Sequence record: PZ386976.1
DNA length: 64,000 nt
Direction: 5' to 3' (one strand)
DNA from: a phage
The translations under genes and the position numbers were made by a program. Numbering within the stretch: the first letter of the stretch is position 1; each line of letters begins with the position of its first letter. Shown here in pieces: positions 5,612-63,556 of this stretch. The notes beneath the pieces are model-generated. The model had not been told where the DNA came from. It saw only the letters and a program-made list of their open reading frames with translations, and searched no databases.

Positions 5612-6168
5612 TCAGTGTACTTCAAGCCAATTCTTACCAACTTTACCAGTACCAGTTACAAGCGTTTCCTCCTTAAGCCCTAAGTTTCTTGATGCCTGAC
5701 CATACATCCAGTCAATCACTGCTTTAACATCCTGTGTCATCTCTTCTGGGCACTCCCAACTATTCTCATCGTGGTATGCTAAAAGCAATCTAGCACCAAT
5801 AGCTGGTTTTCGACCATTCAGCTTTGTAAGACCCTCTTCACAAGTCCTTCTACAAGCAAGGTTGATGGCTTCATTCTGAACCTGACTTTCCGAACCCATG
5901 AGCAAGTAATTTAAAAGTTTGTGCGGAGATTTACACCACAACCATGCACCTGCTACCTTTACAAAACCACCCTTAGATATTGCAGCAGTCTTACCAAACA
6001 CCTCTTCAAGAGCCTTCTTAGTGGCTTTGAAGTCTGCTTCTAAATTATCTATCAACTTCTTAATTTTAGGGAGGCGTACAAAGTATGTTTGCTTAGTTAA
6101 AGCACCTTCCTCAGTTGTAGATGCTTTAATCGTCTTAGCAAATTTCTCATCGCCAGCCCCGAACAATA
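5612..6168 (-). CDS. DNA polymerase (family A, T7-like), 3' exon
   Basis: begins ...LFGAGDEKF (second half of motif B YGxxYG) and contains motif-C-like AYHDE; in-frame continuation of upstream exon if an 805 nt intron is removed. Confidence 0.7.
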
Positions 6169-6973
6169 CATCTGGTCAATACACTCGCAAGGTGTACCAG
6201 TTCTCTTATGAACTTCTCCGCATTTCTACGGAGTGTCGGACTATATCACGTAGTAGTAGTAATACTACCGTTGCACTTGGGAATGGTCATTAGCTTACCA
6301 CCCTACTCTACTCAGTTCATACGTTAAGTATGCTTTTCGATAGTCTCTGAACGTTTCTCTGTTAGGAATCTCTATAGTTATGTTATTTGCTTAGGTAGTC
6401 AATTGCCCTTTGCATATTATCAATGCTATCTGCAAGTAACCCCAAAGCTCTATTGCAATTGTGGCACAACATGCCTCTTACTTTTCCGGTTTTGTGGTCA
6501 TGGTCAACGACAAGTTTAGCCTTATGCCGTGAACTATTCATGATAAAACCTTCACCGCCACAAATTTGACATTTGTAATCACAGTTACGAAGTAGGGTCT
6601 CAACCTCTTCTCTTTCTAAACCATATGTTCTCAGGTAGTAATTCTTAACTCTACCTTTCTCTCCACAATGCGAAGAACAATAAACTTGCCTTGCTGTTCT
6701 AGGCATGAACACCTTCTCACAGCTAGGACATTTCTTAGTAAGAACCCTATATTCTGCTCTTCTGTCAAATTTTAATACGCAACTTCTGCACCGTTTTTGA
6801 TTGTATTGGTACGGTTTAAACTCCGTGCCACACTCAGTGCATAATCTCTCTTCGTAACCTGCCATTGTCTCTCTCCTTTGTTTTAGGAGTCCTAACAGAG
6901 ACTTCGCTGCTGATTACCATATCTTTACAGACTTAGGCTTCCAGCAATTCACAACGTTTTACATGCGCCACTG
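6169..6973 (-). mobile_element. putative group I intron interrupting the DNA polymerase gene, carrying an HNH endonuclease ORF
   Basis: polymerase frame breaks inside motif B; exon 1 ends in U and intervening segment ends in G (minus strand); joining restores ...AKNGIYALLFGAGDEKF, which resembles the T7 motif B region. Confidence 0.5.
6383..6865 (-). CDS. HNH homing endonuclease (intron-encoded)
   Basis: Cys-rich zinc-binding N-terminus and HNH motif VDHDHKTGKVRGMLCHNCNRALG. Confidence 0.65.
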   Translation of the reverse strand: MAGYEERLCTECGTEFKPYQYNQKRCRSCVLKFDRRAEYRVLTKKCPSCEKVFMPRTARQVYCSSHCGEKGRVKNYYLRTYGLEREEVETLLRNCDYKCQICGGEGFIMNSSRHKAKLVVDHDHKTGKVRGMLCHNCNRALGLLADSIDNMQRAIDYLSK

Positions 6974-9146
6974 ACGCATAAATGCCATTTTTGGCTTTCT
7001 TACGGCCTTTACTAATTTCCTGAAGAAGATTTGTATCCTGAGTGGCTCGACAGGTCAAGATATCTTCCTCTTTATTAAGGCTGAAGTAGATGCTATTTAA
7101 AGTATGCGCATCAGTTCCTGAGTACACCACGTACAAGTCATTTTCCGAATCATAATGCAAATACTTGTCAATCTCTGGGTTTAGATACTGGTCAAAATGT
7201 TTGCAATAGTATCTGCCATCCTCTTGTTTGACAAACTCAACCTCTTCTTTACCCTCTGTCACTGCTTTAGTGAACTCCTTATCACCCATAAAGTTGCACA
7301 GCAGCACAAGTTGGGCACTATTCATATCTGCTGAAACAATATTAGTTCCTTCCTCACAAGTCCACACCTCCCTCATAGGCGCTCCATAGACAGCAGCACC
7401 AGACGGTACGTTTACAATACCATATTGTGTCATACGTCCAGTTGAAGTACCAAACACCATTGCACCAGCACTAAGGCGACCATCAGGACGAATCTGGTTA
7501 AGCCAACCTTTTTCATCATCCTTTGAGTTCTCAATAGTTCTGCGTCGGTGCATCAAAGTGTAGTATTTCGCAATCTTCTGTCCAAGCTCACCTTCAATCG
7601 TATCATAAGATGATTCAGTAAGTTTTGGTGAAGTACGGATTAAGCAAGGTTCAAGCAAATCTGTGTATTTCTTCACAGACCAGTTATGCTCAATGTACTG
7701 TACACCTTCATGTTCAACATAACTCAAACCACACCGCTCAACCATTTCCTGCCACTTAGGATGTTTTGTAATCATCTTTTTATTGTCTTTGAAACGACAA
7801 ACTTTGACAGGGCGACCATCTGAGTCTTTCTTGTAGTTCCAGTCATCTGGAATCCAACCAACTGATTTCAAGTAGTCTTTAACAACTGCTACCTGAGTCA
7901 TACGAGAAACTTCAAACTCAATTGGTGTATATGGTGCATCAATCAAACCTGTGTAGCGACTTGACTCAAGTTCAAAGTGGTTAACAACGTGGCTGTTATA
8001 GTACTTCACAGTTTTGACTGTTTTTACTGGCTTCCAGTCTTTGCACTTCTTACCAATCTTTGCATTCAACTCATTGCAAATTGCACGAGCATCCTTCATT
8101 GCTACAAAACCTTCCTTGTACTCTTCACCAGTTACAGTGTTGGTTGGTGTATAGCAATTCCTTTTTTCAATGTTAAAAATCTTTGTAGTTGGCTTACCAA
8201 ATGGTTTGATTTCATATGTTTGCATCTCACCGTTACGCACCTGCTGACGATACTTTGTCTTAGGGTACTTGGTAATTCTCTTCAGTCCATCTGCATGACC
8301 AAATGTTTCAACATACTCATTCCAAGCTTTTGCAAACTCTTCTCCAGTGACTTTACCTTTGGTCTTAATAGTTGGAGGTAGATGCGGTTCAACCTCTGAA
8401 GCAAGCTCATTAGTCAATTTGTCAAGTTCCTTCACATGGAACTCCATAAGCTCTTTATCAGCTTTCCAGCCATTAATAGCTTGTTGACTCATCCAGAAAG
8501 ATGTCTCTTTAGCTCGCATGTAAGTCTCATAAGTGTCTATACCACACTTCTTAAGCTTGAGATACTCGTTATCAAGTGCCCGTTTAGTTTTGGCGTTAAT
8601 ACGGATATCTTCTACAACACGAGTGAAGATTTCTGCATTCCACACACCCCAATGTTCAATCTCTGGTTTACGGACACCAACACGAGCACCCCATGCAGCC
8701 AAACCATGAGCACCTTTATAACCCTTTGGAGTTGGTCTATCCATCCACTGAACACGAGACTGGATAAGAGAATCCTGAAAGAAATTACTCCACGGCTTAC
8801 ATTTTGGATTATCAAAGTTCCATAAATCCGGTGCAATGTGATTGAAGACCCACCAGTCATAACCGAGGCCGTTATGGATACAAAGTCGTTTTGCCTTTAA
8901 CGCAAACTCAACACCTTCACGTAAACCACCCTTGATGTACTTAGTGTACTTGTGACCGAGGATAGGCTCATCTGTAAAGACCCATACAGGTGGCTCTTCA
9001 TCGTCAGATTTATAGTCTGCAAAAGCCATTACGTGAACTTTAGTGAACTCAAGGAGTAAACCATCAGTCTCTGTATCACCAACTAAATGTAAGTTTTTAA
9101 AATCTACGTTTTCCATTTTTACTCCCTCTAAAATCATTAACCTCAT
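6974..9146 (-). CDS. DNA polymerase (family A, T7-like), 5' exon with 3'-5' exonuclease domain
   Basis: Exo motif DTETDGL, T7-like FNHIAPD/AWG region, motif A SADMNSAQLVLL, start of motif B RKKAKNGIY; ORF then diverges into intron sequence. Confidence 0.8.
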
Positions 9147-22785: not shown

Positions 22786-23982
22786 ATGAACAAAGTACAG
22801 ATTATTAAAAAGAATGGCTCACTCGAAGAACCTGATATCAAAAAAGTTTTAGCAGCAGTCACAAAGTCAGCTAATAGGGTTGGGTATAAAGAACTCCCAC
22901 CAGATGTTACTCAAGCTCTTGAGTCAGCATTTATGAGGATTCTGGTAAAGTCCACTAAGCAGAATAATTTGCTAATTTCTGTAAACGATATTCACAGTAT
23001 TGTTGAGGGTGCTTTGGCAGAAGTCAATCACGAAATTTATGAGTCTTACTCAACATACAGAAATTACCGTAAAGAAGTTGCTCAAAATTGGGATGAACTC
23101 TACCAGAAGACCAAAGATACACTCTTCTTAGGTGACAGAGAGAATGCTAACTTTGACAGCAGTTTAATTTCTACAAAAGGCTCAATTATTCGTGGTTACC
23201 TGACTAAAGAAATCTTTAAACAGTACCATTTAACACCAGAGGAACTTGAAGCCATTGAAAAAGGGTTTATCTATATCCATGATTTAAGAGACCTAATTTT
23301 TGGTGGTATCAACTGTTGCCTGTTTGACATTGGTAAAGTCCTGAAAGGTGGCTTTGAAATGTCTGGCATCGAATATTGTGAACCAAAGTCTGTGCTGTCG
23401 GCCTTACAGGTTATTGGTGACGTAGTTCTTTCAGCAACTGCACAGCAATTTGGTGGCTTTACTTTAGCAGAGATTGATAAGGTACTCGTACCGTATGCTA
23501 AGAAGTCTCTACGCTATCATGCTGAGAAAGCAGCATCTTATGGTATTCCTAAAGAACATTACCACAATTATATCATGGAGCAGCTACAGATTGAACTGAC
23601 TCAAGGTTTCCAGTCACTTGAAATGAAACTCAATACTGTGCCTTGTAGCCGTGGGGATTTTGCATTTACAACTTTGACATTCGGGTTACTTGATTCAGAT
23701 ATGTCTAATGAAGATAACCGACTGCAATACATGATTGCAAGTACTCTCCTAGATGTTCGTATGAATGGACAAGGTAAGAGCAAGAAGCCTGTTGTATTCC
23801 CTAAACTGGTTTATATTTATGACCAGAAGAGACACGATGAGAATATCTGTCAAGGACACCTGTACAGTAAAGCCATTGAGTGTTGCTCTAAAGCAATGTA
23901 TCCAGATTTCTTAAGTGTATCTGGTCATGGTGCTGTAGCAGAGGCTTTTGAGCGTTCTGGTAAGGTTATTTCACCGATGGGT
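22786..23982 (+). CDS. nrdD: anaerobic ribonucleotide reductase, 5' exon
   Basis: ORF ends ...VISPMG then stop; continues in frame at 24725 as CRAFLSPYL... (reconstitutes a PMGCR motif). Confidence 0.75.
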
Positions 23983-24724
23983 TAACAAGCTCTATAGCTC
24001 ATCTAAAACGTGCCTAAACAGGGAAACTCTACAGATGTAGACAATCCTGTGCTAAATGATGTACGATGTAAGAAACTATACAACATAGGAGTCTTACATG
24101 CCAAACTATCACGTCACTGAAGATGGAAAAGTCTTTAGGGAAAATGGTGTAGAGCTTACGCAGTGGAAATCCAACACTGGGTATATGAAAGTGAGGTTTT
24201 ACGGTAAGAAGAATCGTGACATGTATGTCCACAGGTTAGTTGCTGAGAAATATGTACCTAACCCGAATAATCTTCCAATTGTAAAACATAAGGACGATAA
24301 CAAACTAAATAACCACGCATCTAACTTAGAATGGGGTACTCATTCTGAGAATGCTAAAGAAGGTTATGAGAACGGTTGCTACAAGTTCCACAAGCGTTCA
24401 TATGCCGTGAAAGCCACACACAAAGTGACAAGGGAAGTTATTGTTACTAAGTCAATACGAGAGTTATCCAATATACTTGGACACAATCGCAAGACCATCT
24501 CTTCAATATTGAAGGGTGTAAAAGAGCATAATAACTTCGAATATGAGTTTGAATACATCTAAATGCCGAACGACTAACCGTGATGAATGTAGCGGTGTAG
24601 GGTCAAGCGACTCGAAATGGTACGCTACTTAGAAATAAGTAGAAGATATAGTCTGGACTTACTGGCGACAGTAAGCAGCTTGAATAAAGCGGGGTAAGCT
24701 TAGCGAACTTACCTGAACAACAAG
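23983..24724 (+). mobile_element. putative group I intron in nrdD carrying an HNH endonuclease ORF
   Basis: 5' exon ends with T, stop codon immediately after splice site, intron ends with G; G/C-rich structured 3' region 24565-24724. Confidence 0.55.
24098..24562 (+). CDS. HNH homing endonuclease (intron-encoded)
   Basis: 154 aa ORF with His/Asn-rich HNH-like core (HKDDNKLNNHASNLEWGTHSEN). Confidence 0.6.
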   Translation: MPNYHVTEDGKVFRENGVELTQWKSNTGYMKVRFYGKKNRDMYVHRLVAEKYVPNPNNLPIVKHKDDNKLNNHASNLEWGTHSENAKEGYENGCYKFHKRSYAVKATHKVTREVIVTKSIRELSNILGHNRKTISSILKGVKEHNNFEYEFEYI

Positions 24725-25672
24725 TGTAGAGCATTTTTATCACCATATCTTAACGAGAATGGGGAAGAGTTCTATGTAGGTCGTGCTAACATTGGTGCTG
24801 TGTCTTTGAACTTACCAATGATTTACCAGTATTCTAAAGAGAATGAATTAGATTTCTGGAAAGAGCTTGATAAGTACCTAGAAATGATTCGCAGCTTCCA
24901 CAAGAAACGTTACGAAATGATTGCTAATATGCCAGCAAGTTCTAACCCTCTTGCGTTCACACAAGGTGGTCTGTACAAAGGGAATAAGAAACCTACTGAC
25001 AGGGTTGGCTGGGATATCGTGAAGTCCTTCACAGCTTCTTTTGGGGTTACTGCGCTTGATGAGCTATCTGTTCTTGCTGAAGGTAAACGACTTCATGAAG
25101 TTGGAAGCTGTAGTTTTGCATACGATGTTCTGGAATACATCAACATGAAAACTGAAGAGTTTAAAAATGAAGATGGCTTCTTATATGCCGTCTATGGTAC
25201 TCCAGCAGAATCACTTTGTGGAACTCAGCTAAAACAGTTCAGAGATATGTTTGGCGTTATCAAAGGTGTTTCTGATAAGGAATACTTTACAAACAGCTTC
25301 CATATGAATGTTGCAGCAGACATTACACCATTTGAGAAGCAGGACTTAGAAGAACCCTTCTTCCATATCTGTAGAGGCGGTAGAATCCAGTATGTAAGAG
25401 TGGCTAATCCAGAAAACTTATCAGCACTTAAGAGTTGTATTACGAGAGGTATGTTGAAAGGTTTCTATCAGGGACTGAACTTTGACTTAGCAATCTGTGA
25501 ACATTGCGGTAACAGACCAAAGGCTGATGTTGAAGAATGTGAGGTTTGTCATTCACATGATATCTCTGTGATTAACAGGGTGTGCGGGTATCTCGGGTGG
25601 ACTAAGATTAAAGGCGAATCCCGAATGAATGATGCAAAAATCGCTGAGATTCGTGACAGAGTTTCTATGTAA
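24725..25672 (+). CDS. nrdD: anaerobic ribonucleotide reductase, 3' exon
   Basis: C-terminal Cys cluster and glycyl-radical motif RVCGYLG. Confidence 0.75.
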   Translation, partial: CRAFLSPYLNENGEEFYVGRANIGAVSLNLPMIYQYSKENELDFWKELDKYLEMIRSFHKKRYEMIANMPASSNPLAFTQGGLYKGNKKPTDRVGWDIVKSFTASFGVTALDELSVLAEGKRLHEVGSCSFAYDVLEYINMKTEEFKNEDGFLYAVYGTPAESLCGTQLKQFRDMFGVIKGVSDKEYFTNSFHMNVAADITPFEKQDLEEPFFHICRGGRIQYVRVANPENLSALKSCITRGMLKGFYQGLNFDLAICEHCGNRPKADVEECEVCHSHDISVINRVCGYLGWTKIKGESRMNDAKIAEIRDRVSM

Positions 25673-58222: not shown

Positions 58223-58299
58223 CTCTGTTTAGCTCAGCTTGGTAGAGCGTTCCGTTTGGGGCGGTAAGGCCGGAGGTTCAAGTCCTCCAACAGAGACCA
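58223..58299 (+). tRNA. tRNA-Pro: tRNA-Pro (anticodon TGG)
   Basis: manual cloverleaf: acceptor ctctgtt/aacagag, anticodon loop ttTGGgg, T-arm ggagg-ttcaagt-cctcc, CCA encoded. Confidence 0.6.
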
Positions 58300-58316
58300 A
58301 ATTTAAAGGGGTTACT

Positions 58317-58673
58317 ATGAGATTTTTAAAAGAATGTCCAGTTCATGGTTTAACTGAACATAGCATTCATAAGAATGGTAACGCCGGTAATAGAGTAAAT
58401 TGTCTAAAATGTTGTGCATTAAGGACAAAACTTAGAGAGGATGCCAATAGGGAGAAAGCATACAAGTTTTATGGCGATAGTTGCAAAATTTGTGGCTATA
58501 ATAAATGTAAAAATGCTTTAGAATGGCATCACCTTAACCCAAACGAAAAAGAGAATACACCATCAAAAATTATGGGTGCATCTTGGGAAAAGGTTAAAAA
58601 AGAACTTGATAAATGTGTTTTGCTCTGTGCTAATTGCCACAGAGAGGTTCATAGTGGAATTACAACGGTTTAA
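58317..58673 (+). CDS. HNH homing endonuclease within tRNA cluster
   Basis: Cys-rich zinc-binding elements and HNH motif EWHHLNP...LLCANCHREVH; ORF 58239.. trimmed to MRFLKE because upstream part overlaps tRNA-Pro. Confidence 0.6.
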   Translation: MRFLKECPVHGLTEHSIHKNGNAGNRVNCLKCCALRTKLREDANREKAYKFYGDSCKICGYNKCKNALEWHHLNPNEKENTPSKIMGASWEKVKKELDKCVLLCANCHREVHSGITTV

Positions 58674-58674
58674 T

Positions 58675-58749
58675 GTCGTAGAAGGCAAATGGTTAGCCAC
58701 CTGACCTTCAATCAGTTGCTCGCAGGTTCGAATCCTGTCTACGACACCA
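58675..58749 (+). tRNA. tRNA, anticodon tentative (TTC, Glu?)
   Basis: acceptor gtcgtag/ctacgac, T-arm gcagg-ttcgaat-cctgt, CCA encoded; anticodon loop ccTTCaa has atypical C33. Confidence 0.45.
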
Positions 58750-58753
58750 GTTT

Positions 58754-58832
58754 TGACAGAAGACCAATTACAGCAAACTTAATCTTATTCATCTGAAGGT
58801 AAATCGGACAAAGAAGAGATTTGGTCTGGTCA
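58754..58832 (+). ncRNA. conserved bulged-helix module 1 (outer stem tgac/gtca, 5' AGA bulge, inner stem agaccaa/ttggtct, 3' G bulge)
   Basis: one of four copies with covarying outer stems; encloses AT-rich loop. Confidence 0.35.
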
Positions 58833-58840
58833 TTAAGAAT

Positions 58841-58917
58841 TGCGGGTATAGAGAAAGGGCGTCTCACATGTCTCATTAGCATGGTATCGGCAGGTTCGAC
58901 TCCTGCACCCGCCTCCA
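58841..58917 (+). tRNA. tRNA-Met/Ile2 (anticodon CAT), initiator-like unpaired 1:72
   Basis: acceptor (t)gcgggt/acccgc(c), anticodon loop ctCATta, T-arm gcagg-ttcgact-cctgc, CCA encoded. Confidence 0.5.
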
Positions 58918-58920
58918 ATT

Positions 58921-58986
58921 TTGCAGAAGACCGTATTCAGCAACAAACTACTTTTTGCGGATAAAAGAAAAAACACGGTCTGGCAA
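58921..58986 (+). ncRNA. conserved bulged-helix module 2 (outer ttgc/gcaa, inner agaccgt/acggtct)
   Basis: same architecture as module 1 with compensatory base changes. Confidence 0.35.
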
Positions 58987-58994
58987 TGTATTAA

Positions 58995-59071
58995 GGTTAG
59001 GAAGCACATAAGGTATGTGCGGTCGCCTGTTAAGCGAATGGCACAGGGTTCGAATCCCTGACTAACCGCCA
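58995..59071 (+). tRNA. tRNA-Asn: tRNA-Asn (anticodon GTT)
   Basis: acceptor ggttagg/actaacc, D-arm gcac-ataaggtat-gtgc, anticodon arm gtcgc-ctGTTaa-gcgaa, T-arm caggg-ttcgaat-ccctg, CCA. Confidence 0.7.
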
Positions 59072-59140
59072 AATTTAGGAGAGAAGCGATTGCTCACCGA
59101 TTTGTAAGGTGCAAGTCCTTAGCCTGAATAGAAATTAAAT

Positions 59141-59228
59141 GTGTCGTTATCCCGTAGATGGTAGCGGTGGGGACTGTAAATCCCTTGTCATTGAGACTCG
59201 GTAGGTTCGACTCCTACACGGCACACCA
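59141..59228 (+). tRNA. tRNA-Tyr: tRNA-Tyr (anticodon GTA), long variable arm
   Basis: acceptor gtgtcgt/acggcac, anticodon arm gggga-ctGTAaa-tccct, long variable arm, T-arm gtagg-ttcgact-cctac, CCA. Confidence 0.65.
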
Positions 59229-59233
59229 ATAAA

Positions 59234-59311
59234 GGTTATGTAGTTTAATTTGGTTAAAATACTCCCCTGTCACGGGAGATGATGAGGGTTCAAATCCCTT
59301 CGTAACCGCCA
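59234..59311 (+). tRNA. tRNA-Asp: tRNA-Asp (anticodon GTC)
   Basis: acceptor ggttatg/cgtaacc, anticodon arm ctccc-ctGTCac-gggag, T-arm gaggg-ttcaaat-ccctt, CCA. Confidence 0.7.
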
Positions 59312-59369
59312 ATTTTGAGAGGGCTATTTAGCCCCTCCCTTAAAGGGTTCTTACGAGTATCCTTTAAAG

Positions 59370-59451
59370 GAGCAGAAGACCAAATACAGCAAGAACGTAT
59401 GAAAATTTCAAGCCAATTTAATTTTGAAAAATTTAAAACTTGGTCTGGCTC
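59370..59451 (+). ncRNA. conserved bulged-helix module 3 (outer gagc/gctc, inner agaccaa/ttggtct)
   Basis: same architecture, compensatory outer-stem change. Confidence 0.35.
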
Positions 59452-59458
59452 AACAAAT

Positions 59459-59595
59459 TTACAGAAGACCGTTTACAGCAAAACTTAAACAATCTATTTC
59501 TCGGTAAAGAAAAGGCGAAGGTTCGATTCCTTCACTCGGCAGATGTCGAGTTGGTGTAATGGTAGCACTTAAGATGATAAACAACGGTCTGGTAA
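59459..59595 (+). ncRNA. conserved bulged-helix module 4 enclosing a circularly permuted tRNA-like domain; candidate Y-RNA-like RNA
   Basis: outer ttac/gtaa, inner agaccgt/acggtct; enclosed 59517-59568 has T-arm gaagg-ttcgatt-ccttc, 7-bp hairpin actcggc-agat-gtcgagt (acceptor-like) and D-arm-like gtg-taatggtag-cac in permuted order. Confidence 0.35.
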
Positions 59596-59736
59596 TTATC
59601 TTTGTAGATAAGTTATTAAGCTTACCTGTGAGTATGCGACCACAAAGGGTGAAAGGGTAAATTCTAGATTTAAACCCAAAAAGGCACATCGCTACAGACC
59701 TTAAGCAAGTCTGGGTAGCTTATCTACAAAGATAAT
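59595..59736 (+). ncRNA. long hairpin with perfect 18-bp stem enclosing ~106 nt
   Basis: attatctttgtagataag (59595-59612) is the exact reverse complement of cttatctacaaagataat (59719-59736); no ORF. Confidence 0.3.
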
Positions 59737-59741
59737 TTAAT

Positions 59742-59817
59742 GGAAGTGTAGCAGAATGGTGATGCGGCAGACTTTTAATCTGACAGGCGATGGGTTCGAA
59801 TCCCTCCACTTCTACCA
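59742..59817 (+). tRNA. tRNA-Lys: tRNA-Lys (anticodon TTT)
   Basis: acceptor ggaagtg/cacttct, D-arm gca-gaatggtga-tgc, anticodon loop ctTTTaa, T-loop ttcgaat, CCA. Confidence 0.6.
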
Positions 59818-59821
59818 AAAT

Positions 59822-59898
59822 GGTTCAGTCGCAGATAAGGTAATTCAAGGGTCTCATAAGACCTATGAATGTGGGTTCGATTCCCATCTGAACCTCCA
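59822..59898 (+). tRNA. tRNA-Met/Ile2 (anticodon CAT), tentative
   Basis: acceptor ggttcag/ctgaacc perfect, anticodon loop ctCATaa, T-arm gtggg-ttcgatt-cccat, CCA; D-arm irregular. Confidence 0.45.
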
Positions 59899-59900
59899 AT

Positions 59901-59975
59901 TGTGGGTTAGCATAAATGGTAATGCAAACGGCTGATAACCGTTAGAAGAGGGTTCGATACCCTCACCTACAACCA
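59901..59975 (+). tRNA. tRNA-Ile: tRNA-Ile (anticodon GAT)
   Basis: acceptor tgtgggt/acctaca, D-arm gcat-aaatggta-atgc, anticodon arm aacgg-ctGATaa-ccgtt, T-arm gaggg-ttcgata-ccctc, CCA. Confidence 0.7.
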
Positions 59976-59990
59976 ATTTCAATAAAGTTG

Positions 59991-60019
59991 TTGACATTGA
60001 GATGTGACTACTTTATAGT
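59991..60019 (+). promoter_or_regulatory. sigma70-like promoter inside tRNA cluster
   Basis: TTGACA, 17 nt, TATAGT; followed by ~200 nt ORF-free region before next tRNA. Confidence 0.5.
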
Positions 60020-60222
60020 AACCTTAGTTTTCGTTGCGTAGCGTCTATTTTGCAAATTTAAAATAAATGCAAACGACAATGTTTTTCTGGCAGTAGCTTG
60101 ATAGGCTAAACACCAGTGAGGTCTTCCAATCCCTCATCAAAGAATTTGGCGTACTAGCCCACGGTATGATTAATAAGGTGGGCATCTTTAAGTGCTTTCT
60201 GAGAGAGTCTTTAAAGATTAAT

Positions 60223-60299
60223 GCACCCTTAGTTCAATTGGATAGAGCAACGGTCTTCTAAATCGTTAGTTACAGGTTCGAATCCTGTAGGGTGTACCA
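60223..60299 (+). tRNA. tRNA-Arg: tRNA-Arg (anticodon TCT)
   Basis: acceptor gcaccct/agggtgt, D-arm gttc-aattggata-gagc, anticodon arm acggt-ctTCTaa-atcgt, T-arm acagg-ttcgaat-cctgt, CCA. Confidence 0.7.
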
Positions 60300-60441
60300 A
60301 ATAGTTAGCAGATTGCTTAGACGACCTTATCGGGTCTCCGTGTAAGGAGGTGGTCTGTATCTCATGTTTTCCAGAACATGTAAATAATCTGAGAAGGGGC
60401 TTTACAGTGTTGCGAAAATACGGTAAGCTTCGAATTATAGT

Positions 60442-60524
60442 ATGGGACGATGTTAAGACTCTAAGGCATGAGCAACGGCCTCCAAAACCGTTTCAAAGGG
60501 GTTCAACTCCTCCGTCCCATGCCA
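60442..60524 (+). tRNA. tRNA-like gene with oversized D region (possible anticodon CCA, Trp?)
   Basis: acceptor atgggac/gtcccat perfect, T-arm agggg-ttcaact-cctcc, CCA; candidate anticodon loop ctCCAaa; D region ~7 nt too long. Confidence 0.35.
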
Positions 60525-60537
60525 AAGTCTTATTAGG

Positions 60538-60625
60538 GGTAGGTAGCGGCTAATGGCAGCCAAACAGTCTTGAAAACTGTTGCCACTGTAGAGATACGGT
60601 GAGGGTTCGACTCCTTTACTTACCG
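60538..60625 (+). tRNA. tRNA-Ser: tRNA-Ser (anticodon TGA), long variable arm
   Basis: acceptor ggtaggt/acttacc, anticodon arm acagt-ctTGAaa-actgt perfect, long variable arm, T-loop ttcgact. Confidence 0.6.
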
Positions 60626-60882
60626 CCTAATAAGATTTAAAGCCAAGCTTCATTCGGATGTTGCTTTGGTATCCCTCGTGTATTGTCGTACACACTGATA
60701 AAGCACCTAGTAGGTGTCACGGAGAAGAGATAATATCAAGCTCTCCAAAGGTTCTAGTCACCGGATTAAACAAGGCTATGCAAAGACCTGTTTAGGTCTT
60801 TTTAGAGGGCTTCTAAGGTTATTACAGCTTGTTGTGGAACCTTGTTGCTTAGGTTCTTAGAAGTTCTCTAAAAAGATTTAAT

Positions 60883-60960
60883 GGGAGATTGACGGTAATT
60901 GGTAAACCTACCATCCTTAGAAGTTGGTGTTTGAGGGTTCGAATCCCTTGTCTCCTACCA
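60883..60960 (+). tRNA. tRNA, anticodon tentative (TAG, Leu?) with short variable arm
   Basis: acceptor gggagat/gtctcct, anticodon arm ccatc-ctTAGaa-gttgg, T-arm gaggg-ttcgaat-ccctt, discriminator A, CCA. Confidence 0.45.
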
Positions 60961-60967
60961 AATTAAT

Positions 60968-61043
60968 GCAGGTGTAGCAAAATGGTTATGCGGCTGACTC
61001 TTAATCAGTAAGACGATGGGTTCAATTCCCTCCACCTGTACCA
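60968..61043 (+). tRNA. tRNA-Lys: tRNA-Lys (anticodon CTT)
   Basis: paralog of Lys-TTT gene; anticodon arm gctga-ctCTTaa-tcagt, T-loop ttcaatt, CCA. Confidence 0.55.
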
Positions 61044-61049
61044 AATATT

Positions 61050-61125
61050 GGGGTCATAGTTTATATGGTTAAAATTCGAGTTTTGCAAACTTGGGAACTG
61101 AGTTCAATTCTCAGTGACTCCACCA
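61050..61125 (+). tRNA. tRNA-Ala: tRNA-Ala (anticodon TGC)
   Basis: acceptor ggggtca/tgactcc, anticodon arm cgagt-ttTGCaa-acttg, T-arm ctgag-ttcaatt-ctcag, CCA. Confidence 0.6.
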
Positions 61126-61131
61126 ATTAGT

Positions 61132-61206
61132 GCATCCATAGTTTAAACGGGAAAATTACAGTCTTCCAAACTGAGGTTGAGGGTTCGATTCCCTCTGGAT
61201 GCTCCA
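61132..61206 (+). tRNA. tRNA-Gly: tRNA-Gly (anticodon TCC)
   Basis: acceptor gcatcca/tggatgc perfect, anticodon loop ctTCCaa, T-arm gaggg-ttcgatt-ccctc, CCA. Confidence 0.6.
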
Positions 61207-61212
61207 AACAAT

Positions 61213-61289
61213 GCTGCTTTCGTATAATTGGCTATTACACATCCCTTGTAAGGATGGAAATGCAGGTTCGAGTCCTGTGAGCAGCACCA
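61213..61289 (+). tRNA. tRNA-Thr: tRNA-Thr (anticodon TGT)
   Basis: acceptor gctgctt/gagcagc, anticodon arm catcc-ctTGTaa-ggatg perfect, T-arm gcagg-ttcgagt-cctgt, CCA. Confidence 0.7.
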
Positions 61290-61380
61290 ATTCAGAGGTC
61301 AAGTGAAAGACCGCTGGTGTCAACTGAAGACCGTAACAAATTCCACGGAGTTGAGTTAGCGGCACAACTTCAGACCTCTT
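61290..61380 (+). ncRNA. structured element with terminal inverted repeat and a variant of the conserved gaagaccgt box
   Basis: cagaggtc pairs with gacctct ~70 nt downstream; contains ctgaagaccgtaacaaa. Confidence 0.25.
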
Positions 61381-61384
61381 TCAT

Positions 61385-61459
61385 ACTCGCTTAGTTTATA
61401 TGGTAAAACATCACCCTTACAAGATGAAGAAGAAGGTTCAAGTCCTTTAGTGAGTACCA
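61385..61459 (+). tRNA. tRNA-Val: tRNA-Val (anticodon TAC), tentative
   Basis: acceptor actcgct/agtgagt, anticodon arm tcacc-ctTACaa-gatga (one mismatch), T-arm gaagg-ttcaagt-ccttt, CCA. Confidence 0.5.
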
Positions 61460-61460
61460 T

Positions 61461-61538
61461 GTTCCAGTATCCCAATTGGCAGAGGATGCAAGCTCAAACC
61501 TTGTACTAGTGACGGTTCGAATCCGTCTTGGAACACCA
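61461..61538 (+). tRNA. tRNA-Leu: tRNA-Leu (anticodon CAA) with short variable arm
   Basis: acceptor gttccag/ttggaac, D-arm tcc-caattggcaga-gga, anticodon arm gcaag-ctCAAac-cttgt, T-arm gacgg-ttcgaat-ccgtc, discriminator A, CCA. Confidence 0.5.
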
Positions 61539-61543
61539 ATTTT

Positions 61544-61619
61544 GCAGGATTAGTTCAAATGGATAGAGCAACAGTCTACGAAGCTGTTAATAGGGGTTCG
61601 AATCCCTTATCCTGCACCA
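61544..61619 (+). tRNA. tRNA-Arg: tRNA-Arg (anticodon ACG)
   Basis: acceptor gcaggat/atcctgc perfect, D-arm gttc-aaatggata-gagc, anticodon arm acagt-ctACGaa-gctgt, T-loop ttcgaat, CCA. Confidence 0.65.
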
Positions 61620-61638
61620 ATTTAAAGAGGCTATTTAA

Positions 61639-62196
61639 ATGAGATATTTGAAGTATGCTTCATGGATTTTCCTAGCTTTGTTAGACCCATTGGCAGCAAC
61701 CTTAGCAGTTATCTTAGCACCTTTTGTAGTTCCATTCTATAGTGAGAAGAAAGGACATCTACCTTTTGGATTCAGATGGATGGAGACATATGACAACCCT
61801 ATTGATGGTGATGAAGGTCACATTAAACGATGGGCTAAGATTAGAAAGATTGGTAAGCTTGGTGTCTATTTGCAGAGAGTTGGATGGCTCTGGAGAAACA
61901 AAGCTTATAACTTCTCTTACCATGTGTTAGGAAGAGATATAAAAGATGTTACTAAGTGGAAAGGTAATATCAACGTAAGCTCTGACCCTGAAGATAATCA
62001 GACAGGTTATCTCCTAATGTGGAACAGTAATGCTTGGGGATTATTCGCTTTTATCCCATCAATTAAAATCTTTGGTAAACAATTCTACTGGAGAATTTAT
62101 GTTGGGTGGAAACTAAAAAGTGTTGTCCCAGAAGAAAGAGCATTCTCAAGGGAAAGAGTTATGTTGGCATTCTTTATTCATCCACTGAGAAAGTAA
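61639..62196 (+). CDS. membrane protein embedded in tRNA cluster
   Basis: 185 aa with N-terminal hydrophobic helix. Confidence 0.45.
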   Translation: MRYLKYASWIFLALLDPLAATLAVILAPFVVPFYSEKKGHLPFGFRWMETYDNPIDGDEGHIKRWAKIRKIGKLGVYLQRVGWLWRNKAYNFSYHVLGRDIKDVTKWKGNINVSSDPEDNQTGYLLMWNSNAWGLFAFIPSIKIFGKQFYWRIYVGWKLKSVVPEERAFSRERVMLAFFIHPLRK

Positions 62197-62204
62197 AGAT
62201 TTAA

Positions 62205-62280
62205 AGGGGATTAGTTTACAAGGTTGAAACCTCGGTCTTTGAAATCGAAGAAGTTGGTTCAATTCCAACATCCCCCGCCA
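62205..62280 (+). tRNA. tRNA-Gln: tRNA-Gln (anticodon TTG)
   Basis: acceptor (a)ggggat/atccccc with unpaired 1:72, D-arm gttt-acaaggttg-aaac, anticodon arm tcggt-ctTTGaa-atcga, T-arm gttgg-ttcaatt-ccaac, CCA. Confidence 0.55.
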
Positions 62281-62282
62281 AT

Positions 62283-62361
62283 GCTCCATTACTCCAATTG
62301 GCAGAGAGGCCAGACTTAAAATCTGTGTTATGTATCGGTTCGAATCCGATATGGAGTACCA
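62283..62361 (+). tRNA. tRNA-Leu: tRNA-Leu (anticodon TAA) with short variable arm
   Basis: acceptor gctccat/atggagt, D-arm ctc-caattggcaga-gag, anticodon arm ccaga-ctTAAaa-tctgt, T-arm atcgg-ttcgaat-ccgat, discriminator A, CCA. Confidence 0.5.
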
Positions 62362-62366
62362 AATTT

Positions 62367-62442
62367 AGCGGTATAGCATAACTGGCAATGCAGCAGTCTC
62401 TGAAGCTGTCCTATTAAGGTTCAAATCCTTATGCCGCTGCCA
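62367..62442 (+). tRNA. tRNA-Gln (anticodon CTG), tentative
   Basis: acceptor agcggta/tgccgct, anticodon arm gcagt-ctCTGaa-gctgt, T-arm taagg-ttcaaat-cctta, CCA. Confidence 0.5.
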
Positions 62443-62473
62443 CTTCTAAGGATTCTTACGAGAGTCCTTAAAT

Positions 62474-62549
62474 GTGGCCTTATCATAAATGGTAATGACC
62501 CATGCTGTGAACATGGTCTATACGGGTTCAAATCCCGTAGGTCACCCCA
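62474..62549 (+). tRNA. tRNA-His: tRNA-His (anticodon GTG)
   Basis: acceptor gtggcct/aggtcac, anticodon arm ccatg-ctGTGaa-catgg perfect, T-arm acggg-ttcaaat-cccgt, CCA. Confidence 0.65.
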
Positions 62550-62554
62550 ATTTA

Positions 62555-62631
62555 TAGTCCAAGTAGCTTATATGGTTAAAGCGCGTGTCTGAAAAACATG
62601 AGAAGAGGGTTCAAATCCCACTGGACTACCA
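62555..62631 (+). tRNA. tRNA-Phe: tRNA-Phe (anticodon GAA), 3' end ambiguous
   Basis: acceptor tagtcca/tggacta, anticodon arm cgtgt-ctGAAaa-acatg, T-arm gaggg-ttcaaat-cccac. Confidence 0.5.
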
Positions 62632-62648
62632 ATTTCAAAGGTGCTTAA

Positions 62649-63382
62649 TGAAAGAGATGACAGAACAAGGTAAGGAGATTTTTAATCTCTTAAAAACCGG
62701 TAGAGGGTTTTCTAATCCCCTTATTACTGGTGCAGCAGTTCTAGGTGGAACCGTAGCTGCCTCTACATCACTTGTAAGCTCTATTAGTTCTGTAACAGAC
62801 CCTACAATGAAGGATAAACTCATTGCTGCTGGACTTACAACAGTTCTGCTTAATAGCTTTACAACGAGTCTGACAAGCACTACAGCAACTACTAAGACAT
62901 TGACAGATTATGGTCAAAAATCTATTGATGAGTTTTCCTCACGTATGCAGGTAGCAAAAGGCTACTCCAATGTTATGGGTGCAGCAGGAGAGCAAGTTGG
63001 TTGTACACCATTTAGTGGTATTATGGGTGTTGCTACAGAGTATGGTCAAAAAGCTATGGATACAATTAACAGCACACTAGATGATGTTAATGCCGTGTTA
63101 AGTGACTTACAGGATGCTATTGATAAAGGTCTTGATACTATTTCTGATTTAGCTAACCAAGCCGTTAGCAAGATTAATGAAGGTATCTCGAAGATTACAG
63201 CTTATGCAGATGAAGTTGTGCAGATGATTGAAGAAGAAGCTGCCCTTGTTGCAGATTACCTTAAAACGAATATTAATGGGTTCTTAGCAGGTGTCTTACC
63301 AGACTGGTTTGATGATGCTTGTAAAACTGGTGTGATTGACACTATTGCAACACCAGAAATGAAGAACGCATTACAGAAATAA
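62649..63382 (+). CDS. hypothetical protein, Ser/Thr-rich N-terminal half and helical C-terminal half
   Basis: ORF 62585.. trimmed to MKEMTEQ because upstream part overlaps tRNA-Phe. Confidence 0.45.
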
Positions 63383-63383
63383 T

Positions 63384-63476
63384 GGAAGATTAACCCTAAA
63401 AGGTAAGGGAGCAGTTTGCTAAACTGCCAGTAGCTGAGAAATCGGTGTACCAGTTCAAGTCTGGTATCTTCCTCCA
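63384..63476 (+). tRNA. tRNA-Ser: tRNA-Ser (anticodon GCT), long variable arm
   Basis: acceptor ggaagat/atcttcc perfect, anticodon arm gcagt-ttGCTaa-actgc perfect, long variable arm, T-arm accag-ttcaagt-ctggt, CCA. Confidence 0.7.
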
Positions 63477-63480
63477 ATTT

Positions 63481-63556
63481 GAATCCGTGACAGAAATGGA
63501 TATGTGCCTGTCTGCAAAACAGGTTTATAAGGGTTCGAGTCCCTTCGGATTCTCCA
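63481..63556 (+). tRNA. tRNA-Cys: tRNA-Cys (anticodon GCA)
   Basis: acceptor gaatccg/cggattc perfect, anticodon arm cctgt-ctGCAaa-acagg perfect, T-arm aaggg-ttcgagt-ccctt, CCA. Confidence 0.7.

Follow-up and report, generated by a model that had tools for sequence, protein, structure and literature searches.

A predicted group I intron with a putative homing nuclease gene in motif B of a Felixounavirus family A DNA polymerase gene

The window analyzed in this study, a 64,000-nt stretch of DNA (PZ386976.1), belongs to a Felixounavirus (Felix O1-like) phage and contains on its minus strand a gene for a family A DNA polymerase that is split by an insert of 805 nt. All features described below are given on the minus strand. 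The first part of the gene, exon 1 (6974..9146), encodes the 3'-5' exonuclease domain, the thumb, and the first half of the fingers. This exon ends with ...GRKKAKNGIYA and T6974, the first base of a Leu codon, while the corresponding ORF (9146..6933, 737 aa) runs for 13 codons inside the insert (SVAHVKRCELLEA) before the stop codon at 6935..6933. The second part, exon 2 (5612..6168), starts with UA, completing the Leu codon, and then encodes LFGAGDEKF..., followed by the remainder of the fingers and by the palm, which includes motif C. Its ORF (6166..5612, 184 aa), opening with LFGAGDEKF, ends at the polymerase stop codon (5614..5612). As proposed in the initial annotation, removal of 6169..6973 joins the two exons in frame: the result is an ORF of 2730 nt, encoding 909 aa with an intact motif B, and the junction translates as ...AKNGIYALLFGAGDEKF.... 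With the alternative start at 9137, the polymerase has 906 aa, and gp96 of Felix O1 also has 906 aa (PMC3185647).

The insertion point is fixed by the intron-less phages wV8, Sf16, and dune, which are collinear over the junction and read GCN CTN YTG TTC (A L L F) there. These collinear intron-less polymerase alleles are from Felixounavirus and Mooglevirus, and intron-less sister phages encode one continuous protein. The last base of exon 1 (6974) is T/U and the last base of the insert (6169) is G, in agreement with the first description of the locus. If the boundary is moved by one base, the conserved Leu becomes Val and the U(-1)/terminal-G rule no longer holds. The spliced-junction peptide is aligned without gaps with TRDNAKTFIYGFLYGAGDEKIG of T7 DNA polymerase, and the fit of the exons at the junction is far beyond chance expectation. 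The insertion is located 3' of the first base of the Leu codon of motif B (O-helix), a codon aligned to F528 of T7 gp5. The break is thus found inside one α-helix, between a Tyr (T7 Y526) and a Phe (T7 Y530), and the polymerase is indeed split inside motif B, as had been claimed.

The insert (6169..6973), previously called "intron-like," appears from its sequence, structure, and comparison with relatives to be a genuine group I intron, with P1 (including the U·G pair), P10, P3-P9, P7.1/P7.2, and the terminal G. It starts with CAGUGGCGCAU... and ends with ...CCAGAUG, the terminal G being at 6169. In P1 (6963..6979), the exon sequence AUGCGU (6979..6974) is paired with GCGCAU (6968..6963) as the internal guide, and the wobble pair U6974·G6968 is located at the 5' splice site. 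This guide varies together with the exon, the paired sequences being AUGGGU/GCCCAU in the relative L009, AGACGUU/GGCGUCU in L008, and CUUCGCU/GGCGAAG in L017. A P10 of 5 bp, including two G·U pairs, is possible between CAGUG in the P1 loop (6973..6969) and UAUUG in exon 2 (6168..6164). The strands of P3 are CGUUGUG (6950..6956) and UGCAACG (6269..6275); in the alignment of 15 relatives, compensatory changes were found for six of the seven pairs and 97% of cells are paired. P4 (6908..6946) consists of UGCUGG (6946..6941) and UCAGCA (6913..6908) around P5 (6937..6917), a hairpin with the tetraloop GUAA. The P5 loops of the window, SPJ41, and REP9 are GUAA, GGAA, or GAGA, all belonging to the GNRA type; P5 of REP9 also has one A-U to A·C change without compensation.

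The 5' strand of P6/P6a (6890..6907), GC GAA GUCUCUGUUAGGA, has its partner in the P6a/P6 3' strand (6351..6367), UCCUAACAGAGAAACGU. A perfect 12-bp stem of UCUCUGUUAGGA and UCCUAACAGAGA closes the ORF-bearing loop, and a U-A pair of the P6a stem is replaced by C-G in the compact alleles. The 5' strand of P7 (6341..6347) is GAGACUA with a bulged A; its partner UAGUCC (6243..6238) follows J8/7 (GUGAUA), both being located at 6238..6249. The outer pair of P7 is G-C in the window and A-U in 113 relatives; among 123 family matches, 118 have G-C, A-U, or U-A at this position. P7.1, a GUA linker, and P7.2 (6279..6340 in total) were drawn by inspection and conservation in the relatives and are probably a peripheral extension of the kind typical of subgroup IA. 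P7.1 is located at 6340..6307 (UCGAAA...hairpin...GAGUAGA), GUA at 6306..6304, and P7.2 at 6303..6279 (GGGUGGU...ACCAUUCCC). Subgroup IA2 (the phage td/nrdB/SPO1 type) is characterized by P7.1 and P7.2 between P7 and P3', with G-U-A as the link, and by an ORF in P6a (PMC3428280). The P8 hairpin (6250..6268), GUAGUA...UACUAC, has one UAC triplet more than the sister alleles, and a compensatory change, GUAGCA/UGCUAC, was found in P8 of SPJ41. In the P9 hairpin (6216..6233), CUCCGUA-GAAA-UGCGGAG, five of the seven pairs are compensatory, and a GNRA loop is present in all 15 aligned sequences. P9 is followed by a conserved 15-mer, AGUUCAUAAGAGAAC (6214..6200), and by the adjoining P9.1 hairpin (6199..6177), which was found by local folding. 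The same folding recovers P1 (with the U·G pair), P4/P5, and P9.

A covariance search for group I introns had been suggested in the initial annotation. Against the Rfam model RF00028 (gathering score 50), searched at the gathering threshold as well as by E-value, the window gives partial matches only, to P4-P6 (24.6 bits) and to J6/7-P9 (17.9 bits), because the model is split by the 522-nt ORF-bearing loop in P6a. These partial matches include GUUCAGAGACUA and GAUAUAGUCC. Natural ORF-less alleles exceed the gathering score: 62.3 bits for the ORF-deleted allele of Mushroom, and 62.1 and 61.7 bits for the compact alleles of SPJ41 and REP9, respectively. The Mushroom allele differs from the ORF-stripped window by one base and one UAC triplet. 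Membership in RF00028 by score thus rests on near-identical ORF-less alleles, since the window itself is under the threshold.

For the analysis of covariation, 15 relatives, either naturally ORF-less or stripped of the ORF, were aligned with MAFFT, and a structure including the P3/P7 pseudoknot was written by hand. In these 15 sequences, P3, P4, the base of P6, P7, and P9 are 99.3% paired, and changes on both sides were found in 15 of the 28 core pairs. The observed score was reached by none of 500 shuffles, and slid controls were 23-47% paired. P5, P6a, P7.1/P7.2, P8, and P9.1 were assessed by eye and kept outside this count because MAFFT mis-registers them between the Felixounavirus and IMG/VR sets.

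The P6a loop contains an ORF of 160 aa plus a stop codon (6383..6865). An AAGGAG sequence (6878..6873) is located 7 nt 5' of its ATG, and its stop codon is 15 nt short of the P6a 3' strand. The N-terminus has two Cys4 zinc-ribbon-like motifs, and the C-terminus has an endonuclease VII (DHHRN, ββα-Me) nuclease domain, matching Pfam Endonuclease_7 (PF02945) over residues 79-159 with 71.8 bits and an E-value of 4.5e-20 (cut-off 23.6). Matches to Hpy99I and T4 endonuclease VII were found in the PDB. The roles of the residues in the pattern CX2-4C ... D-H-(D)-H ... R ... CX2C-N are described for the DHHRN family (PMC6083498), and C99, C102, D121, H122, D123, H124, R130, C134, C137, and N138 are all present in the ORF. 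The D-H-(D)-H, R, and N residues are aligned with D40, H41, H43, R54, and N62 of T4 Endo VII, as well as with Hpy99I. The DHHRN motif is C-terminal, as in the "endonuclease clade." No match to canonical HNH Pfam families (such as PF01844 and PF13392) was found for this ORF at E-values up to 0.01. Thus, the ORF is a predicted endonuclease VII-motif (DHHRN) nuclease, and its first description as an HNH endonuclease holds for the HNH/ββα-Me superfamily but not for canonical HNH enzymes. In the minimum-free-energy fold, the Shine-Dalgarno sequence of the ORF is covered by a CUCCU/AGGAG hairpin (extended GUCUCU/AGAGAC), but this folding is not significant (z-score -1.3). Elsewhere in the same window, the ORF of the nrdD intron does match HNH_3.

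The intron was found at the identical site in about 100 Felixounavirus records. It is present in three forms: with the ORF (801-805 nt), with the ORF deleted (311 nt), and compact (268 nt). The intron is absent from Felix O1, wV8, and dune. Felix O1 lacks the polymerase intron (PMC3185647), which explains why no introns are reported in the original paper on this phage. At least 24 records have a full-length ORF with an identity of 80% or higher. Among the relatives, the 3' part of the ribozyme is 95-98% identical, versus 62-85% for the exons. The 30 nt of exon 1 adjoining the intron are 100% identical to the window in both SPJ41 and REP9, and the identity further off is 62-77%. The identity of this flank looks like the result of co-conversion, although it could instead be caused by selection for P1 pairing.

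With the boundaries, the restored frame, the covarying RNA structure, the presence/absence polymorphism at a single site, and the intact catalytic residues in hand, the insert is very probably (probability about 0.93) a self-splicing group I intron with a homing nuclease gene in P6a, located in motif B of the polymerase gene. A single pre-mRNA would be transcribed from the polymerase gene and would fold into the P1-P10 core. In the first step of splicing, guanosine would attack 3' of U6974, held in the U·G pair by the guide GCGCAU; in the second step, the freed exon 1 would attack 3' of G6169, the last intron base, exon 2 being positioned by P10. The junction of the ligated-exon RNA would read ...UAUGCGU|UAUUGUUC..., and its translation would give one polymerase of 906-909 aa with the junction-spanning peptide NGIYALLFGAGDEK. 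The unspliced RNA could give only a truncated protein because of the stop codon 13 codons into the intron. As to mobility, the DHHRN nuclease would most likely cut an intron-less polymerase allele near the insertion site during mixed infection, and recombinational repair would copy the intron, together with a short piece of the adjoining exon, into the genome that was cut. Such homing is compatible with the presence/absence polymorphism at a single site, the higher conservation of the intron than of the exons, and the 30-nt identical exon flank.

The two halves of the polymerase could alternatively be subunits, the 737-aa and 184-aa ORFs being translated apart and assembled non-covalently, with a spacer bearing a free-standing nuclease gene between them and with no splicing. 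Public records are annotated in this way, with two "DNA polymerase" CDS around an "endonuclease VII" (in Mushroom, "DNA polymerase subunit"), and a TTG codon is present at the very beginning of exon 2. This TTG at the junction is the sole candidate start of the second half, which has neither ATG or GTG nor a Shine-Dalgarno sequence, and the subunit boundary would fall within the O-helix, between the positions of T7 Y526 and Y530 in one α-helix. Moreover, the supposed spacer is a conserved and covarying group I ribozyme that persists at the identical site as an ORF-less element of 268 nt in other isolates, and the intron-less sisters encode one uninterrupted protein. The two-polypeptide alternative, left standing in the initial annotation, is therefore very improbable. 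Even less credible, to the point of being negligible, is another type of intervening element (for example, intein, group II intron, or translational bypass element). It is favored only by the overall appearance of the locus, a conserved gene broken by a nuclease-bearing insert, and against it stands the positive identification of the group I core. An intein is ruled out by the length of the insert (805 nt = 3 x 268 + 1) and by the stop in the exon-1 frame after 13 codons; as for a group II intron, no intron family except RF00028 was matched at E-values up to 1, and no reverse transcriptase is encoded.

It is also conceivable, though unlikely, that the intron is spliced but its ORF is not, or never was, a homing endonuclease, being instead a decaying passenger, a maturase-like helper, or a general nuclease, with the intron spread by ordinary recombination. 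Alleles without the ORF, either naturally deleted for it or compact, are frequent, as they should be late in a homing cycle. The ORFs of Tribble and SP-010 are just 79% identical to that of the window, while the 3' half of the ribozyme is about 97% identical in FSL SP-012/SP-107, and the hairpin over the Shine-Dalgarno sequence might limit expression, for all its non-significant z-score. The ORF is nevertheless maintained at full length in the records counted above, retains all its catalytic residues and zinc ligands, and has a good ribosome-binding site (AAGGAG). In addition, related pairs of ORF and intron are found in Pakpunavirus and in T7-like Yersinia phages, at a polymerase site identical or close to that of the window, and the identical 30-nt exon flank is co-conversion-like. 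A homing role of the encoded nuclease is thus preferred here.

In the genomes with the ORF-less intron, a free-standing gene for an HNH endonuclease of 177 aa begins 3-4 nt past the polymerase stop codon. The variant of this gene with 95% identity or higher accompanies the ORF-less intron, and a variant at 84-86% identity is found at the same place in the intron-less dune, SapYZU01, and DR094. No free-standing HNH gene was found downstream of the polymerase gene in wV8 or in the window. Such a pattern fits linkage to the lineage of the polymerase allele at least as well as a functional partnership. According to a speculative and rather doubtful joint reading, the ORF-less introns (SPJ41, REP9, Mushroom, and about 40 others) would be mobilized in trans by the 177-aa HNH enzyme, a case of "collaborative homing" like that of F-CphI and the psbA intron; the ORF of the window would be a second and independent invader of P6a, and the intron lineage would also have passed to Pseudomonas Pakpunaviruses, into the same codon and phase. 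If true, two unrelated nuclease families would compete for the spread of a single ribozyme into a single polymerase codon.

The group I intron reading has consequences for annotation. In about 100 public Felixounavirus records, the pair of polymerase CDS and the "endonuclease VII" should be one joined CDS with an intron and a homing-endonuclease gene, and the exact splice coordinates (6973..6169) make this correction possible. The locus is a further example of a phage replication gene with a group I intron in one of its catalytic motifs. Since the genus keeps intron-less, ORF-bearing, ORF-deleted, and compact alleles in easily grown phages of E. coli and Salmonella, it would offer a convenient system for measurement of the homing cycle and for characterization of an intron-encoded DHHRN nuclease. 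Nothing in the polymerase intron challenges current understanding.

The element itself is already known. Its orthologues in JH2 (gp58, AGR48454) and FSL SP-010 (AGF88709) are listed as intron-encoded homing endonucleases with the Endo VII motif (Fang et al., 2018; PMC6083498), and both genes are situated between the polymerase halves of those phages. Orthologues in EC6 and FSL SP-010 (gp255) are likewise called "intron-encoded" DHHRN homing endonucleases (PMC6083498), and an ORF-less polymerase intron was noted in Meda (PMC6486253) and SPJ41 (PMC9951933). These papers on sister phages just name the element, without structure, boundaries, or experiments (PMC6083498; PMC6486253; PMC9951933), and no paper demonstrating splicing or nuclease activity was found in the literature on Felix O1-like phages. 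The sister Felixounaviruses JH2, EC6, and FSL SP-010 share with the window the insertion site, the ribozyme (95-98% identity in the 3' half), and an orthologous ORF. The region of JH2 is 94.7% identical to the window at the nucleotide level, and the ORF of the SP-010/Tribble type is 79% identical at the amino acid level. The window differs from the sister alleles by the additional UAC triplet of P8 and by a few single-base changes, none of them substantial.

Group IA2 introns in polymerase genes have been described for the T7-like phages ΦI and W31, with I-TslI (Bonocora and Shub, 2004, as cited in PMC3428280), as well as for cyanophage Pf-WMP3 (I-PfoP3I; PMC3428280) and the Bacillus phages SPO1 and SP82 (I-HmuI/II). 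The predicted intron of the window resembles all of these in being a group I intron in the family A polymerase gene of a lytic phage, in having apparent P7.1 and P7.2 elements joined by GUA and no P2, in carrying in P6a a nuclease ORF with its own ribosome-binding site, and in being inserted in a conserved catalytic motif (PMC3428280). The sites are different: the known introns are inserted at positions corresponding to 674, 676, and 881 of E. coli Pol I, whereas the insertion in the window is located in motif B, at about 764 by alignment. The nucleases of the known introns are canonical HNH nickases, in contrast to the Endo VII/DHHRN motif found here, and their splicing has been demonstrated, whereas that of the window intron is predicted.

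The closest counterparts outside the genus are the introns of Pakpunavirus and of a T7-like Yersinia phage, whose nucleases are homologous to that of the window (41-50% amino acid identity), as are their ribozymes. The P7/J8-7 core GAUAUAGUC is common to the window, L009, and L008, and L008 also has AGUUCAUAAGAGAAC. The Pakpunavirus intron is located at the same codon and in the same phase as that of the window, and the splicing predicted for it is confirmed by the 100% identity of intron-less relatives across 69 aa. The intron of the T7-like Yersinia phage is inserted 11 nt upstream of the site in the window, after the second nucleotide of the codon for T7 F524. The ORFs of L008 and L009 extend into the P7/P7.1 region, whereas the ORF of the window ends before the 3' strand of P6a. 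The founding and sole biochemically characterized DHHRN homing endonuclease is F-CphI of cyanophage S-PM2 (PMC6083498). The gene for F-CphI is free-standing and adjoins an ORF-less psbA intron, and the enzyme acts by "collaborative homing," whereas the putative nuclease gene of the window is located within the intron itself.

The family A DNA polymerase gene of the window is divided between two ORFs on the minus strand, of 737 aa (9146..6933, N-terminal part) and 184 aa (6166..5612, C-terminal part), which cover positions 93-184 and 218-380, respectively, of the Pfam DNA_pol_A profile. The frame of exon 1 reaches ...GRKKAKNGIYA, continues for 13 intron codons and stops; the second ORF begins with LFGAGDEKF. 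The split described in the initial annotation, with a stop after AKNGIYA and a restart 805 nt downstream on the same strand, is thereby confirmed as written. Excision of exactly 6169..6973 (805 nt) results in a polymerase ORF of 2730 nt, encoding 909 aa, or 906 aa with the second ATG as start. The uninterrupted Felix O1 polymerase gp96 has 906 aa (PMC3185647). The synthetic spliced junction has one collinear match in each of the intron-less phages wV8, dune, and Mooglevirus Sf16, and the junction codons are GCN CTN YTG TTC (A-L-L-F) in intron-less relatives versus GCG U|UA UUG UUC in the spliced window. The proposed in-frame joining through motif B also holds: the spliced peptide GRKKAKNGIYALLFGAGDEKFAKTI aligns without gaps to TRDNAKTFIYGFLYGAGDEKIGQIV of T7 DNA polymerase, the stretch forming the O-helix (motif B). 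The intron is therefore located after base 1 of the codon matching T7 F528, between a conserved Tyr (T7 Y526) and a conserved Phe (T7 Y530). As noted earlier, exon 1 ends in U (U6974) and the intron in G (G6169).

More than 250 phage records match 3.9 kb around the polymerase at 89-97% identity, almost all from Felixounavirus or elsewhere in the Ounavirinae, the Felix O1-like myophages infecting Salmonella and E. coli. The adjoining genes of the window, for an ATP-dependent DNA ligase, primase/helicase, nrdA, nrdB, nrdD, and 24 tRNAs, are consistent with this identification.

All group I intron elements are present in the insert, listed here 5' to 3' on the minus strand. P1 pairs exon AUGCGU with the guide GCGCAU and places a U·G wobble at the splice site; CAGUG of its loop and UAUUG of exon 2 could form P10. 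P3 connects CGUUGUG (6956..6950) to UGCAACG (6275..6269), and P4 (UGCUGG with UCAGCA) encloses a P5 hairpin with a GUAA loop. The long P6/P6a includes a perfect 12-bp stem of UCUCUGUUAGGA and UCCUAACAGAGA, which closes a 522-nt loop. J6/7 and P7 (GUUCA-GAGACUA) lie 3' of it and are followed by P7.1, a GUA linker, P7.2, and P8, in this order. The 3' part includes J8/7 and P7' (GUGAUA-UAGUCC), a P9 hairpin capped by GAAA, the motif AGUUCAUAAGAGAAC, and P9.1, and the intron closes with the terminal G. The Rfam group I intron model RF00028 matches the window in two separate halves (24.6 and 17.9 bits, below the gathering score of 50) because the ORF occupies P6a. The ORF-less sister introns of the Felixounaviruses Mushroom, SPJ41, and REP9 match the whole model at 62.3, 62.1, and 61.7 bits, and the assignment by score goes through these alleles.

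In P7.1 (6307..6340, minus strand), a variable inserted hairpin is bordered 5' by UCGAAA and 3' by GAGUAGA; this motif pair recurs in a subset of relatives, at loci L009, L014, L018, L065, L104, L115, and L133, and its AGUA opposite GAA presumably resembles a loop E/sarcin-ricin-type motif. In P8 (6250..6268, minus strand), the UAC triplet run GUAGUAUUACUACUACUAC exceeds that of Mushroom and REP9 by one unit, a minor length polymorphism located within the P8 loop or beside it.

An exact-match scan of IMG/VR with the 15-mer AGTTCATAAGAGAAC retrieved at least 120 contigs (loci L014-L133), and the downstream layout P7'-P9-15mer-P9.1 is common to 123 of the 130 matches listed. This 15-mer (6200..6214, minus strand), located between P9 and P9.1, is a marker of group I introns that form a very large family in phages. 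Several IMG/VR contigs carry two copies of it, and in at least two contigs (L107 and L017) the intron is followed by motif-B-like polymerase exon sequence (…FVYGGGDEKA and …QYGATAKG).

Covariation was counted in an alignment of 15 natural members, the window among them, that lack the ORF or were stripped of it, for P3, P4, the P6 base, P7, and P9; P5, P6a, P7.1/7.2, P8, and P9.1 were left out, being mis-registered by MAFFT. Standard pairs occupy 99.3% of cells, and 15 of the 28 pairs have changes on both sides. The covariation score was reached by none of 500 shuffles, and sliding the partner by 1-3 columns decreased pairing to 23-47%. The long-range helix P3 covaries at six of its seven pairs. 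Among the 123 family matches listed, the outer P7 pair is A-U in 113, G-C, the state of the window, in 3, and U-A in 1. Within the genus, compensatory changes from U-A to C-G were found in both P6 and P8, and the P5 loop is GNRA throughout (GUAA, GGAA, GAGA); one P5 change in REP9 is uncompensated.

Structure, scores of the ORF-less alleles, and covariation agree with the initial reading of a group I intron-like element, which was right in what it observed and how it interpreted this, apart from the nuclease family and the novelty of the element. The insert is best explained as an ordinary mobile group I intron, with a probability of about 0.93 for the intron: the polymerase pre-mRNA would self-splice to give one restored polymerase, and the nuclease encoded in P6a, likely an active homing enzyme, would drive homing of the intron. 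The alternative offered by the initial annotation, a polymerase composed of two separate subunits, fails, because the break falls within a single helix of the dNTP-binding site, no ATG, GTG, or ribosome-binding site is available to start the second half, and the "spacer" remains a conserved ribozyme in alleles that code for nothing. An intein and a group II intron were ruled out by the frame, the stop codons, and the absence of any intein or group II signal. No splicing experiments in Felix O1-like phages were found in the literature search; splicing and homing are therefore inferred for the group I intron.

The intron ORF (160 aa; 6865..6383, minus strand) has AAGGAG 7 nt upstream of its ATG. 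Its product was initially described as an HNH endonuclease. In Pfam it scores 71.8 bits against Endonuclease_7 and matches no canonical HNH family; its PDB matches are the restriction enzyme Hpy99I and T4 endonuclease VII. All motif residues described as catalytic or zinc-binding are retained (C99/C102, D121-H122-D123-H124, R130, C134/C137, and N138). The N-terminal half has two additional Cys4 patterns, which are zinc-ribbon-like and may bind DNA. For this nuclease group, Fang et al. coined the name DHHRN family of homing endonucleases and listed JH2 gp58 (AGR48454), EC6, and FSL SP-010 AGF88709 as "intron-encoded" (PMC6083498). A locus check placed AGR48454 and AGF88709 between the polymerase halves of JH2 and FSL SP-010; the JH2 region and the window share 94.7% identity. 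Thus, the element is already in the literature, by name only.

Alleles of the intron vary among Felixounaviruses. The Mushroom intron (311 nt, same site) has lost the ORF in a clean deletion; beyond that, one base and one UAC triplet separate it from the window. The SPJ41 and REP9 introns (268 nt, same site) have a compact P6 hairpin without ORF. Many other Felixounaviruses, e.g., Felix O1, wV8, and dune, have no intron. Together, the ORF-bearing, ORF-deleted, compact, and empty alleles represent a classical homing cycle. The 3' half of the ribozyme was found at ≥90% identity in about 103 phage records, and the ORF at ≥80% amino acid identity in at least 24 records, with 18 more at 60-80%. The ribozyme is conserved at 95-98% versus 62-85% for the surrounding exons; in SPJ41 and REP9, exon 1 matches the window at 100% over the 30 nt adjoining the intron and at 62-77% over the next 200 nt. 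Judged from these identities, the pattern is the one that homing accompanied by a short co-conversion tract would leave; selection for pairing in P1 may add to the identity of the exon 1 flank.

Genomes with ORF-less or ORF-deleted introns also have a free-standing gene for an HNH (AP2-domain) endonuclease of 177-178 aa directly 3' of the polymerase stop (L011 1450..1589, equivalent to L135 183..716; L012 1958..2494; L013 1450..1589). It starts 3-4 nt past the stop in SPJ41 and REP9 and overlaps the end of the polymerase CDS in Mushroom. A variant with ≥95% identity was found in 41 records, many of them listed carriers of ORF-less introns, and a variant with 84-86% identity occupies the same position in intron-less dune, SapYZU01, and DR094. 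No such gene was found 3' of the polymerase in wV8 or the window (downstream of 5612). The co-occurrence could reflect linkage or trans-mobilisation. Some intron-bearing relatives have an additional HNH gene 3' of exon 2, about 500 bp more than the window (Salmonella phage Si3, L002 1703..2056; also VSe11, PMBT20, and FG1m), so that the region around the polymerase is a hot spot for nuclease genes of several kinds.

A second group I intron (23983..24724, plus strand) splits nrdD, the gene for anaerobic ribonucleotide reductase, and contains an ORF of 154 aa (24098..24562, plus strand; Pfam HNH_3). Exon 1 ends with ...SPMG at 23982, exon 2 begins with CRAFLSPYLNENG at 24725, and the joined exons are in frame, with GCRAFL across the junction. 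RF00028 matches at 24495..24675 (33.1 bits, E 1.2e-4), and in a possible P1, exon GAUGGGU pairs with the guide GCUCAUC and places a U·G pair at the splice site. An nrdD split by a homing endonuclease was described in UAB_Phi87 and Meda (PMC4837284, PMC6486253). The 24 tRNA genes form an array (58223..63553, plus strand) interspersed with function-unassigned ORFs; DUF7338 (61639..62196) and DUF7217 (62585..63382) ORFs lie within it. Weak, sub-threshold matches to tmRNA and tRNA-Sec models in the array are probably tRNA cross-matches.

The polymerase intron belongs to a known kind of element and is itself already known. Its practical value is an annotation correction for about 100 public genomes, and it would be a convenient system for studies of the homing cycle and of an intron-encoded DHHRN nuclease. 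Outside the genus, Pakpunavirus ZCPS13 of Pseudomonas (L009 2325..3033) has a 709-nt polymerase intron that interrupts the same codon in the same phase and carries a homologous ORF (41% identity); its predicted splice product, …AKNVKYG-C-TYGAQ…, has a 100% match over 69 aa in intron-less Pakpunaviruses. A T7-like Yersinia phage (L008 2317..2996) has a related 680-nt polymerase intron with an ORF 50% identical to that of the window, located 11 nt upstream of the window's site, after nt 2 of the T7 F524 codon. The presence of such introns with Endo VII ORFs in unrelated phage groups suggests transfer across families and a target site that has drifted within motif B. Phage polymerase introns characterised previously occupy different sites, corresponding to residues 674, 676, and 881 of E. 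coli Pol I (PMC3428280).
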